Of a stretch of DNA of 64,000 nucleotides, positions 16,829 to 23,486 are shown in pieces. How positions within the stretch are numbered: the stretch's first letter is position 1; the number at the start of each line of letters is the position of its first letter. This DNA comes from an uncultured Cytophagales bacterium (GTDB lineage Bacteria > Bacteroidota > Bacteroidia > Cytophagales > Cyclobacteriaceae): positions 1,291,746-1,355,745 of the forward strand of contig CAWBZE010000005.1 in assembly GCA_963793215.1 (NCBI GenBank), given 5' to 3'. The notes below the pieces were generated by a model. The model worked only from the letters and a program-made list of their open reading frames with translations, did no database searches and was not told where the DNA came from. The position numbers and the translations under genes are program-made.

Positions 16829-17170
16829 ATGTCAATTCTCGTAAAATGGGTGCTCTCTGCCGCAGCGGTGCTCATCGCCGCTTACATTCTGCCGGGCGTG
16901 GCGGTGGCCAGCTTCTGGTCGGCCCTGATCGTGGCGGCTATTTTGGCCATTCTGAACGCTATTCTTCGTCCCATCCTGGTGGTGCTCACTATTCCGATCA
17001 CCATTGTCACGCTGGGCTTGTTTCTGCTGGTGATCAATGCGCTCATCATATTGCTTACCGACTCGCTGATTTCGGGCTTCGAGGTCAGCAACTTCTGGTG
17101 GGCGTTGCTATTCAGCCTGCTAATTTCAGTATTGGGAGCGCTGTTTGATGACGTTGCCGAGCGTATTTAA
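16829..17170 (+). CDS. Phage holin family 4 / DUF360 membrane protein
   Basis: 113 aa with 4 TM helices. The N-terminus ILVKWVLSAAAVLIAAYILPGV and the segment AILNAILRPILVVLTIPITIVTLGLF are typical of DUF360. Confidence 0.8.
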   Translation: MSILVKWVLSAAAVLIAAYILPGVAVASFWSALIVAAILAILNAILRPILVVLTIPITIVTLGLFLLVINALIILLTDSLISGFEVSNFWWALLFSLLISVLGALFDDVAERI

Positions 17171-17238
17171 CAGCCAAGGGGAGAAAGGAAAACGGAGGGT
17201 GGACACACAATCTTCCGTATTCCGTTCTTCCGTTTCCG

Positions 17239-18126
17239 TTAAAAGAAAGCCATACTCAAAATACCGCTTAGCATCAGCAGCTTGCAAAAATTGCTTAGAT
17301 AACTGAAGTCGCGTTTGGTATCAGCGTACACCAGCCGGGTGATGAAATACGATAAGGGAATGATCAGTACCAGAAAATAGATGACCAATGTGCGGTTGCC
17401 CAGGGTGCCGGACATCAGGAAGAGCAAGAAGATAAAGAAGCCCGATAGGGCGTACAGCAATAGCTTCGTGCGGCCAATGCCCCACACAATGGGCAGGGTG
17501 CGGCAGCCAAAGGTTTCGTCGCCACGCACGTCTTCCATGTCTTTGATGATTTCCCGCATCAGCGAAATAGAAAAGGCAAACAGCGCGTAGGTGAACACCA
17601 GAAACTGCTGCTGCTTGTAGTATAGTCCGATCACCGCAATGGCCAGGCCCGACAGCAGGGCAATGCTGATGTTGCCCACCAACGGATAGCGCTTCAGCTG
17701 GTTAGAGTACCACCAGAGCAGAAATGCCGCCGCCGCGTAGATGAGTCCGGCCTTCCACGACAGATACGTGCTGATGAGCACTCCCAGCAGCGTGAGCGTG
17801 ATGTGGGCGGCAATCACCACACGACGGCGCAACACTGTGCCCACCACCACCGTGCGCGGGCGGTTGATAAAATCGATCTTCACATCGTAATAATCATTGA
17901 TAATGTAGCCTGCCGCGGCAATCATCACCGTGGAGGCCACCAGCAAGAACAGGCGACCATCCAGCAAGTAGGCTTGGTGCGTGGCGTGGACATCTACCAG
18001 AAAGTAGGCGGTGAAGTACTGCGTCAGCGCCAGCATCACCAGATTTTGCGCCCGCGTGATGCGCAGCAGTCCCCGTATCCACCCCGGGGGACGGTATGAT
18101 CTTTGAGCAAATTCTCTAGTCATCAT
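17239..18126 (-). CDS. UbiA-family prenyltransferase
   Basis: 295 aa and multi-TM, with the Asp-rich motifs NDYYDVKID and KDMEDVRGD. Confidence 0.85.
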   Translation of the reverse strand: MMTREFAQRSYRPPGWIRGLLRITRAQNLVMLALTQYFTAYFLVDVHATHQAYLLDGRLFLLVASTVMIAAAGYIINDYYDVKIDFINRPRTVVVGTVLRRRVVIAAHITLTLLGVLISTYLSWKAGLIYAAAAFLLWWYSNQLKRYPLVGNISIALLSGLAIAVIGLYYKQQQFLVFTYALFAFSISLMREIIKDMEDVRGDETFGCRTLPIVWGIGRTKLLLYALSGFFIFLLFLMSGTLGNRTLVIYFLVLIIPLSYFITRLVYADTKRDFSYLSNFCKLLMLSGILSMAFF

Positions 18127-18280
18127 TGTCCGGATAAGAAAGCAGCCTTCTCAGTAGTAATGAATCAAAGATGGTATCGAACTAAATTGAGGCCCACTGG
18201 ATTATACTGGATTGACCATCATCGAACCTATAGTGCGATTTACCAAGTAAACGCGTAGATAGTTTACAAATTCTGCATAA

Positions 18281-19587
18281 ATTTGACAATTTACTAGCAA
18301 CCGAAGAAGGTAATAACCATCCCCACCCCTAAAGGGGAAGGGCCACCGTGGCGCGGTTTTAAACCTCACGCACTAGCGATATGCAGATATTCACATACCA
18401 ACGCGGGTTCTTCGGGGAGGGCTATAAATCTCCCCCAGCTACGGATATTCTGTGCCGCATTATGGTCGGCATGGAATACTCCGCAGTTTATGCATTTAAA
18501 TACGTCGCCCGAACGCTTACCAATATGCTTGCACTGGTGGCAAGTCTGAGAGGTGTAGGGGGCTGGAACAAGATGGACAGCAACCCCGGCGCGTTTAGAC
18601 TTGTACTCAATAAAGCTTCTGAGTTGGTAGAAGCTCCAACGGTTATGCAATCCTCTTTGTCTCTTACGCAGCCGTTTGTTCGTACGTGTACGAATGCCTT
18701 CCAGAGATTCCAAAGCGATTGCCTTGCCTTCGCGTTTAGCCTTATCAACAAGGGTTTTGGCGATGGTGTGATTGATAATTTTCGTAGTGGTGCGCTCCCG
18801 ACCCGAGATACGTTTGAGCACTTTTTTGGCCCCACGGGTGCCTTTGGACTGCAAGGAAGCACGGGTTATTTCTCGTTTCTTCCGAAGCGCGTTCAGGTCT
18901 TTACCCTCGTAAATGTCCCCGTCCGAATCAGTAAGGATGTTTTTGATGCCAAGATCGGCCCCAATCACATCGTCAAAAGATTCCTCCTCAGTATCAGGAA
19001 TATCCACAGTTGCCAGCAGGTAGAACTTGCCTTTGATGTAAGCCAAATCAGACTCCCCTTGCTGATACGCCAACAGCTTGGCGTGATGCTTTCCGGTGAG
19101 GTAGTCAATCTTTTGCCGCCCTCCTGTAGTCCAGATAGAGACTTGACGTTTGTCAAAAAGATAACGAAGAATGCGGGAATCGTAGGCCGTTGCCCCATAC
19201 TTGCGGTAAGTACGCTGAACCTTTTTGTCCAGTTTGTAGGAATCGGCCACTTTGCTAATTGCCCGAACGACCACCTGGGCACTCAGATTAAACGAGCCTT
19301 TGATGCGGTGGTAGCACCCTTTGTGAATGGCGAATTGCCGAAACGTTTTAGTTTCAAAGGCCCAAGCGGAAATATCATTGCAAGCCGCATTCGCTTCCTG
19401 CAAGGTGTCAAGGAGCAATTTAGCCTGTTCATCGGTAGGCTTCAAACGTACTTTGGCCGTGAGTTTCATCACTCCAAAGATACACAAATCTTCTCGTACT
19501 TGAAAGAAATTATTCACTTGGAGTGCCCTGTTGCGCTATCGCGCACGTCATTCCTCCCCCGTGTGAACGCCGGGGGTTTCCTGACTT
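18281..19587 (-). mobile_element. tnpB-only IS200/IS605-family (IS1341-like) element; boundaries are approximate
   Basis: It contains only tnpB; no Y1 tnpA is present. The 8-mer ATTTGACA occurs at 18281-18288 and at 19588-19595, about 1.3 kb apart. A subterminal hairpin cccccg-N9-cggggg lies at about 19556-19576. The element separates the otherwise divergent ubiA and metH. Confidence 0.5.
18366..19469 (-). CDS. tnpB: RNA-guided endonuclease TnpB (IS200/IS605 OrfB)
   Basis: The N-terminus [15 protein letters not shown] is typical. The RuvC triad is intact: GADLG (D), ALESL (E), [10 protein letters not shown] (D). The zinc finger is CHQCKH...CINCG. I prefer ATG 19469 over 19517. A TATCTTTG box lies at 19482-19475. 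Confidence 0.9.
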
Positions 19588-19594
19588 ATTTGAC

Positions 19595-20620
19595 ATGATC
19601 GATACGAAAGAAATACTCACCCGTCTGGCCCAGGAGCGTATTCTGCTGCTGGACGGAGCGATGGGCACCATGATTCAGCAGCACAAGCTAGGCGAAGCGG
19701 ACTTTCGCAATGCCGCCTTGGAAAACCACTCCCACCCCTTGCAGGGCAACAACGACCTGCTGTCGATCACCCGGCCAGGCATTATCCGGGGCATTCATCA
19801 GATGTACTTTGAGGCGGGGGCCGATATTGCTGAAACCAACACCTTTAGCTCTACCCGCATCGCCCAGGCCGACTACGGACTGGAGCACTTGGTCTACGAC
19901 CTGAACTACGAATCGGCCCGGCTGGCCCGCGAGGTGGCCGATGCCTTCACCGCCCGCGATCCCGCCAAGCCCCGCTTCGTGGCCGGTTCGCTGGGGCCCA
20001 CCAACAAAACCGCTTCGCTGTCACCCGACGTAAACGATCCCGGCTTCCGGGGCGTCACCTTCGATGAACTGGTGGAAGCCTACACTGAGCAAACCCACGG
20101 CCTGGTCGAGGGCGGGGTAGACATTCTCTTGATAGAGACCGTGTTTGATACTCTCAACGCCAAGGCCGCCCTGTTTGCCGTCAACAACTACCTGGAAGAT
20201 AACCAGCTCAACCTTCCGGTGATGGTATCGGGCACGATCACCGATGCCAGCGGGCGCACGCTGTCGGGGCAAACCACCGAAGCATTCTGGACCTCGGTGA
20301 TGCACGGCGAGCTGTTTAGCGTGGGCCTCAACTGCGCGCTAGGTGCCAAAGACCTCACTCCGTACCTGAAAGAACTATCGCAGCACGCTACGTGCTTGGT
20401 GTCGGCCCACCCCAACGCGGGCTTGCCCAACGAGTTCGGCGAATATGACCAAACTCCGCAGCAGATGGCCGCCGAAATGGAGGAGTTTGTTGGCCGCGGG
20501 TTAGTCAACATTATTGGAGGCTGCTGCGGCACCACCGCTGACCACTTGCGCGCCCTGGCCGCCCTGGCCGAGAAATACGCGCCCCGCCAGCCAAAGGGTG
20601 AGCTAGTGGAGATGGCGTAG
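19595..20620 (+). CDS. Methionine synthase, homocysteine S-methyltransferase domain protein (N-terminal cistron of split MetH)
   Basis: [13 protein letters not shown] near the N-terminus and the Zn-binding GGCCGTT near the C-terminus. It ends in the MetH Hcy-to-folate linker (APRQPKG...). I prefer ATG 19595 (MIDTKEIL) over 19523. Confidence 0.9.
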
Positions 20621-20657
20621 CTTTTTGTAAGAATATAGAATTAGGTCTCGTCGTCTG

Positions 20658-20701
20658 CCCATGCTGTAGCCCATGATTTAAATCATGGGCTACAGCATGG
20701 G
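20658..20701. repeat. Perfect 44-nt palindrome in the metH intercistronic spacer
   Basis: cccatgctgtagcccatgattt|aaatcatgggctacagcatggg, with 22-nt arms, no mismatch and no loop. Confidence 0.95.
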
Positions 20702-20735
20702 GCAAACCGATGGCAAGATCGCGAAACCGTCAACT

Positions 20736-23486
<2,751 letters not shown>

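Follow-up and report, generated by a model that had tools for sequence, protein, structure and literature searches.

Between a UbiA-family gene (17239-18126, minus strand; Pfam UbiA) and the homocysteine-methyltransferase cistron of a split metH (plus strand, ATG at 19595; S-methyl_trans), the genome of an uncultured member of the Cyclobacteriaceae (NCBI GenBank assembly GCA_963793215.1) carries a tnpB gene. The question raised by this locus is what the gene belongs to: where the unit that contains it begins and ends, whether its product is still a guided nuclease, and what its arrival has meant for the host gene that it adjoins. The window analyzed here is a stretch of 64,000 nucleotides of contig CAWBZE010000005.1, and positions are counted from its first letter unless another contig or locus is named. 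An original prediction, made from this sequence without database searches, placed a tnpA-less TnpB element of the IS200/IS605 type between the divergent ubiA and metH genes; the neighbors are as it described them, and the assignment is borne out by family, fold and ends. We read the locus as a 1282-bp tnpA-less (IS1341-type) member of the IS200/IS605 group, on the minus strand at 18313-19594, which inserted at TCAT, encodes a nuclease-competent TnpB and an ωRNA, and would use them for its own homing; for this reading, taken jointly, we estimate a probability of about 0.85.

The ubiA-metH arrangement is kept in 15 of 15 congeners, and the element was not found at this site in any of them. Homology to these empty sites extends to ~18312 and restarts at 19595, and in-silico removal of 18313-19594 yields a gap-free alignment with six congener empty sites, in which the spacing from a promoter-like block to the metH ATG is identical to theirs. 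The alignment leaves an ambiguity of two nucleotides (AT) in the boundary, which is settled by seven independent copies from one congener and from metagenomes: homology to these copies ends exactly at 18313 and 19594, and all seven have TCAT followed directly by G(A/T) at the left end and GATGGTTAY as the last bases of the right end. The element is thus 18313-19594, 1282 bp, made up of 125 nt of left end, the tnpB gene and, 3' of its stop codon, a further 53 nt, past which host DNA starts. The search of the genome for further copies that had been proposed as a means of fixing the ends was run, and the element proved to be single-copy in the 5.5-Mb genome by DNA, protein, Pfam model and RNA model alike, with no further copies, solo ends or orphan ωRNAs found there beyond the element itself; the ends could therefore not be defined from internal copies and were set instead by the empty sites and the seven homologous copies.

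The ends have the organization of subterminal hairpins, with compensatory changes on both sides. No terminal inverted repeats were found on direct reading, the ends GTCAAATAAG... and ...GATGGTTAT being unrelated, and no target-site duplication was found either, as the in-silico excision regenerates the empty site exactly, save for the AT ambiguity. In the left end (19470-19594, minus strand), an alignment and consensus fold of seven left ends gives two conserved hairpins, at 19556-19576 and 19532-19545, with compensatory changes in 7 of 19 pairs; the first is the cccccg-N9-cggggg hairpin already seen in the original prediction, which had also pointed to the GC stem-loop after the stop codon, present as cccc-taaa-gggg at 18326-18337. 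A motif scan places a Bacteroidota-type -7 box, TATCTTTG, at 19482-19475 on the minus strand, directly 5' of the tnpB ATG.

Directly 5' of the left end, in host DNA outside the element, stands the motif TCAT (19595-19598; minus-strand 5'-TCAT-3' at 19598-19595), which on the plus strand reads ATGA, i.e., the metH start codon and one further base. In the IS200/IS605 group, the motif that precedes the left end serves as the TAM and the host sequence that follows the right end as the guide, and native flanking motifs have been found to equal experimentally determined TAMs (Meers et al. 2023, bioRxiv 10.1101/2023.03.14.532601). TCAT adjoins the left end in 7/7 close copies, and at 33 of 48 unique loci of the family it occurs 13-29 nt 5' of the left-end hairpin; one sub-branch appears to use TCAC in its place. 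The right end itself finishes in TTAT (18313-18316), one base off the TAM at 19595-19598, a resemblance that might permit weak self-targeting of the occupied site; most relatives finish in TTAC.

The tnpB frame runs, as originally stated, from 18366 to 19469 on the minus strand; it encodes 367 amino acids. The RuvC triad (D172, E254 and D335, in GADLG, ALESL and a third D motif) and the CHQC...CINC zinc finger (C310, C313, C326 and C329) are likewise as described, and all seven residues are invariant among 19 aligned homologs, the most distant of them 51% identical. The protein matches Pfam Cas12f1-like_TNB at 2.9e-20, OrfB_IS605 more weakly, and NCBIfam guided_TnpB with 173 bits against a cut-off of 100. 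In comparisons with the five closest homologs dN/dS is 0.06-0.11, a value that reflects the lineage and not this copy alone, and by such comparison of sequences TnpB is under purifying selection. An AlphaFold2 model (pLDDT 84.6) finds its best PDB matches in AsCas12f, ISFba1 TnpB and ISDra2 TnpB, and the modeled fold is that of Cas12f and TnpB. No named IS or characterized ortholog was found for the protein, which in the model is structurally nearest to Cas12f. The intact D/E/D triad and zinc finger point to a TnpB that is competent as a nuclease.

The ωRNA was expected to extend over the tnpB 3' end and into the right end, directed toward ubiA, and a fold or covariance model of this region had been suggested; the model that we built (R1, from a seed of 12 sequences) gives a five-helix scaffold with covariation in just this position and direction. 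It scores 108 bits at 18313-18445 (minus strand), a minimum extent of 133 nt for the predicted scaffold, of which 80 nt are shared with the tnpB 3' end and 53 nt are the right end, finishing in ...GGGGATGGTTAT. A closing helix pairs a conserved coding motif, CGTAGCTGG, with the terminal GGTTAY; the other parts are a short GC helix, a long two-part helix and a terminal hairpin, and the same architecture emerges from single-sequence folds of 14 relatives. The model has 19 instances, all at a tnpB 3' end and 7 of them outside the seed. In their alignment, which is fitted to the model and in which ~80 nt of the scaffold are also coding, 85.4% of cells are paired as compared to 29-47% with slid partners, 29 of 40 pairs show compensatory changes (7 of 8 in the terminal hairpin of the right end), and none of 500 shuffles reached the observed values. 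The structure of the ωRNA is thus conserved, with the support of covariation in 19 relatives. RNAalifold on a raw MAFFT alignment recovered the structure only in fragments, and single-sequence folds and the covariance model were therefore used instead. All five helices are kept in this copy, which also has, where the long helix gives way to the terminal hairpin, a private 13-nt insertion, CCGCGCCACGGTG (18345-18357, minus strand), absent from its closest relatives. At this junction a distant copy (L013) carries a GC hairpin of 15 nt unrelated to the insertion, and the site may be one where variation is tolerated.

The element has room for tnpB only and holds no Y1 tnpA; consistent with the original prediction, there is no Y1 transposase in the window, and the nearest Y1 matches in the genome are >350 kb off. 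PF01797 has six matches in the genome, all distant from the element. Five Y1 (HUH) transposase-like genes are intact and code for 150-225 aa (C5:1731535, C5:556786, C5:955259, C4:444285 and C5:608366; L004-L008), none of which adjoins a tnpB, and from a reading of their sequences these proteins look REP-associated (RAYT-type) and not like IS605 TnpA. When they were compared by tblastn with all TnpB loci, the only match was at L101, so that no cognate TnpA was identified. At that locus, a Y1 transposase-like frame (L101:1173-1394) lies just 3' of a truncated member of the TnpB family and is the sole TnpA-like neighbor among ~60 loci. The five closest TnpB homologs are likewise solo, without tnpA.

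The distribution of the family is patchy. It occurs in one of 15 congeners, with four copies there at 61-75% identity, and was not found in 25 further, more distant relatives that were searched (0/25). The closest TnpB protein, 95% identical, is encoded on a 71.6-kb metagenome contig (L041; ENA ERZ25039505 contig_29967), where its neighbors are small ORFs without assignment, DUF7168 and a phage-integrase gene; these surroundings may represent a prophage or integrative element that serves as a vehicle. The best annotated relatives, ~48% identical, reside on Bacteroides fragilis plasmids, and collections of phages and plasmids yielded only relatives of <50% identity, so that no vehicle was identified. 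With a single copy, no cognate tnpA and a family represented in 1/15 congeners, the element looks recently acquired and currently non-autonomous, and it was probably acquired recently and is probably unable to move alone at present.

An element that does not move might also no longer work, i.e., it might be an immobile relic in which the ORF is still open and TnpB and the ωRNA are inert in this host. The single copy, the missing TnpA partner and the private 13-nt insertion in the scaffold are what one could cite for such a state, but the ORF is intact with every catalytic residue kept, the low dN/dS against five relatives argues for selection (as a measure of the lineage, with the reservation made above), and the five helices of the scaffold are all preserved. 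We consider a relic improbable and retain the reading of an element equipped with a competent nuclease and a guide RNA.

A different question is what the insertion has done to metH. The native metH promoter block, TTTACAAATTCTGCATAAATTTGACAATTTAC (18255-18295, plus strand), is host DNA present in all congener empty sites, where it stands ~27 nt 5' of the metH ATG; here it is now 1.3 kb from metH. Within it a motif scan finds a Bacteroidota-type -7 box, TAAATTTG, at 18278-18285. The displaced promoter (18255-18312) now points into the right end, and any transcript that starts there would consequently be antisense to the ωRNA and tnpB. Since the element lies between metH and its promoter, expression of methionine synthase may depend on the transposon or be lost; a MetE-like gene is present elsewhere in the genome, by virtue of which loss of metH might be tolerated. 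A scan of the left end for an exact Bacteroidota -7 box (TAnnTTTG) facing metH found none. Scanning with a sigma-70 promoter and terminator model was uninformative, the model being unsuited to a Bacteroidota genome.

The division of metH into two cistrons is seen in 5/5 congeners checked, with spacers from ~118 bp to ~1.08 kb (L046-L053); the long spacer of one of them (G006) contains small ORFs, of which one matches HTH_3 weakly. The spacer in the window (20621-20735) includes a long, perfect palindrome at 20658-20701, which is the source of the spurious miRNA matches that were all that an Rfam search of 17000-21000 returned.

The position of the left end against the metH start codon recurs across the family. 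Of the 33 loci at which TCAT marks the left end, 21 have a divergent ORF (of at least 80 codons, or of at least 50 codons and still open at the end of the locus) whose ATG coincides with the CAT of the TAM, against a background of 21% for other ATGA sites in the same flanks and 24.5% in the element's own genome. Besides the window (19595-19598), such loci include L010, L042, L044, L045, L055, L070, L076, L078, L089, L092, L093, L096, L099 and L104, among others, and independent gene calls concur at L042, L044 and L045. Several of the docked ORFs have N-termini that are signal peptides, receiver domains or Rossmann starts, which indicates that they begin at real gene starts. The nominal p-value of ~1e-7 overstates the excess, as the loci are not fully independent, and the complementarity of the TAM to ATGA(A), together with the loss of intragenic insertions, may account for some of it. 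A literature search returned nothing specific on a TnpB with the TAM TCAT or on docking at start codons.

One could go further and suppose that TnpB elements of this clade, rather than being scattered over random TCAT sites, dock flush at divergent start codons because the placement is selected or mechanistically targeted, which would make the family a natural promoter-swapping, gene-start-seeking transposon. By docking at a start codon, each copy would replace the promoter and leader of the gene, and its guide would be antisense to the old 5' leader; this could come about through a promoter in the left end that faces outward, or through targeting of DNA that is single-stranded where promoters are open. 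We regard this proposal as speculative and rather doubtful. The excess at start codons gives a lead, cheap to test, on how targets are chosen or on how such insertions are tolerated.

For the window itself, the corresponding claim would be that the insertion is relevant to the host, with the element in control of metH and its placement at the start codon selected and not accidental. Control could be exerted by an outward promoter in the left end, by transcripts that start at the native metH promoter and read through tnpB and the ωRNA in antisense, or by pairing of the guide with the old 5' leader. What speaks for it is that the left end directly abuts the metH ATG, with neither metH cistron disrupted, that 21/33 copies are docked in this way against 21% in the background, and that signal-peptide or Rossmann N-termini mark real gene starts. 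However, the left end has no exact -7 box toward metH, the RuvC site is intact, unlike in known TnpB-derived repressors, the bias may stem simply from a TAM that complements ATGA(A), coupled with the loss of intragenic insertions, and the MetE-like gene might make the loss of metH tolerable. Control of metH by the element is very improbable in our estimation.

The placement of the right end determines what the guide would be. On the TnpB/ωRNA paradigm, the right-end boundary predicts a guide, TACCTTCTTCGGTTGCTAGT (18293-18312, minus strand), that is formed by the 20 nt of host DNA directly 3' of the right end, beginning with TACCTTCTTCGGTTGC (18312 downward). The guide is exactly antisense to what used to be the metH 5' leader, and its sole perfect match in the genome is its own flank, now without a TAM. 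No second target was found in the element's own genome, where the best TAM-adjacent near-match diverges past 12 nt. The original prediction had arrived at other boundaries through the 8-mer ATTTGACA, which does occur at both 18281-18288 and 19588-19595; its left end near 19594 holds, and its right end at 18281 has given way to 18313. The copy at 18281 falls inside the native metH promoter block, in host DNA that congeners have without the element, and the ~1307 bp that the repeat brackets are therefore not the element. With the right end at 18313, the guide that was to start TTATGCAGAATTTGTA (18280 downward) lies 32 nt too far out, in host promoter DNA. The TAM had been sought within ATGTCAAAT, a string that contains only the last two bases of TCAT, the remainder being the first 7 nt of the left end. 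Coincidence of the 8-mer had been given a chance of about 0.15, and when the two non-coding stretches are shuffled with dinucleotides preserved, 27% of the shuffles have an 8-mer in common; the repeat is a coincidence and has no role. An element at 18281-19595 bracketed by ATTTGACA, with the guide TTATGCAGAATTTGTA, thus has the occurrence of the 8-mer at both sites to recommend it and merits next to no credence, as congeners that lack the element conserve 18255-18312 as host DNA, family conservation and the RNA model both stop at 18313, and the empty sites refute its boundaries.

For the element at 18313-19594, the following course of events can be proposed. Insertion would have taken place by the single-strand "peel and paste" route of the family, 3' of a TCAT that in this case overlaps the metH start codon and reads ATGA on the opposite strand, and would have parted metH from its conserved promoter. 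A transcript from the tnpB 3' end would then pass through the right end (18445-18313) into the host flank and acquire the guide TACCTTCTTCGGTTGC..., and the complex of TnpB and ωRNA would cut a vacant site, i.e., TCAT followed by the guide sequence, so that recombination could restore the element. The exact ends, the TAM TCAT and the 20-nt guide given here for an uncharacterized Bacteroidota TnpB are what a bench test or a screen for compact editors needs.

Among known systems, the type V-F CRISPR effector Cas12f is the nearest by structure: AsCas12f (PDB 8J12, 7WJU) provides the best structural matches to the model, at TM 0.64-0.68, and the best PDB sequence matches as well. A Cas12f was rejected, as there is no CRISPR array, the score for NCBIfam Cas12f2 is 110 bits against a cut-off of 450, the protein has 367 aa as compared to 420-530 aa for Cas12f, and the entire 1282 bp are a transposon. 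The TldR proteins are TnpB-like, nuclease-dead repressors (Wiegand et al., PMC10705468). With these the locus shares a TnpB-family protein beside the promoter and 5' end of a host gene and a guide that matches that region; it differs in having transposon ends and an unbroken, invariant RuvC triad and zinc finger, and in that the target of the guide is now without a TAM. A TldR was rejected because the RuvC catalytic residues are not lost and the triad is invariant in 19 homologs.

Further parallels are found in ISGst2 TnpB2 and ISDra2 TnpB, experimentally characterized RNA-guided homing nucleases (Meers et al. 2023, bioRxiv 10.1101/2023.03.14.532601; PDB 8H1J, 8EXA) with which this element has in common a TAM 5' of the left end, a guide 3' of the right end, and the RuvC D-E-D triad with a zinc finger. 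The model superposes on these solved TnpBs with TM 0.57 (8h1j) and 0.46 (8exa), at only 15-18% identity. Unlike them, the element has TCAT as its TAM in place of TTTAT or TTGAT and is without a TnpA partner; TTCAT is the TAM of ISGst5 IscB (Meers et al. 2023, bioRxiv 10.1101/2023.03.14.532601).

It is among the IS1341-type elements that the locus finds its place, as an ordinary representative of a very large and well-understood class. The absence of a Y1 (HUH) tnpA separates IS1341-type from IS605-type elements. IS1341-type (tnpB-only) members of the IS200/IS605 group are described with non-coding RNAs that overlap the 3' end (Gomes-Filho et al. 2015, PMC4615843). Every defining feature of this type that can be tested was found here: one tnpB without tnpA, whose product has a split RuvC (D, E, D) and a CxxC...CxxC zinc finger, a predicted structured non-coding RNA that overlaps the tnpB 3' end and covers the right end, subterminal hairpins without inverted repeats or target duplication, and a position 3' of a fixed tetra- or pentanucleotide adjoining the left end. 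What sets the element apart from the known members is its lineage, a Bacteroidota host of the Cyclobacteriaceae, and its TAM, TCAT.
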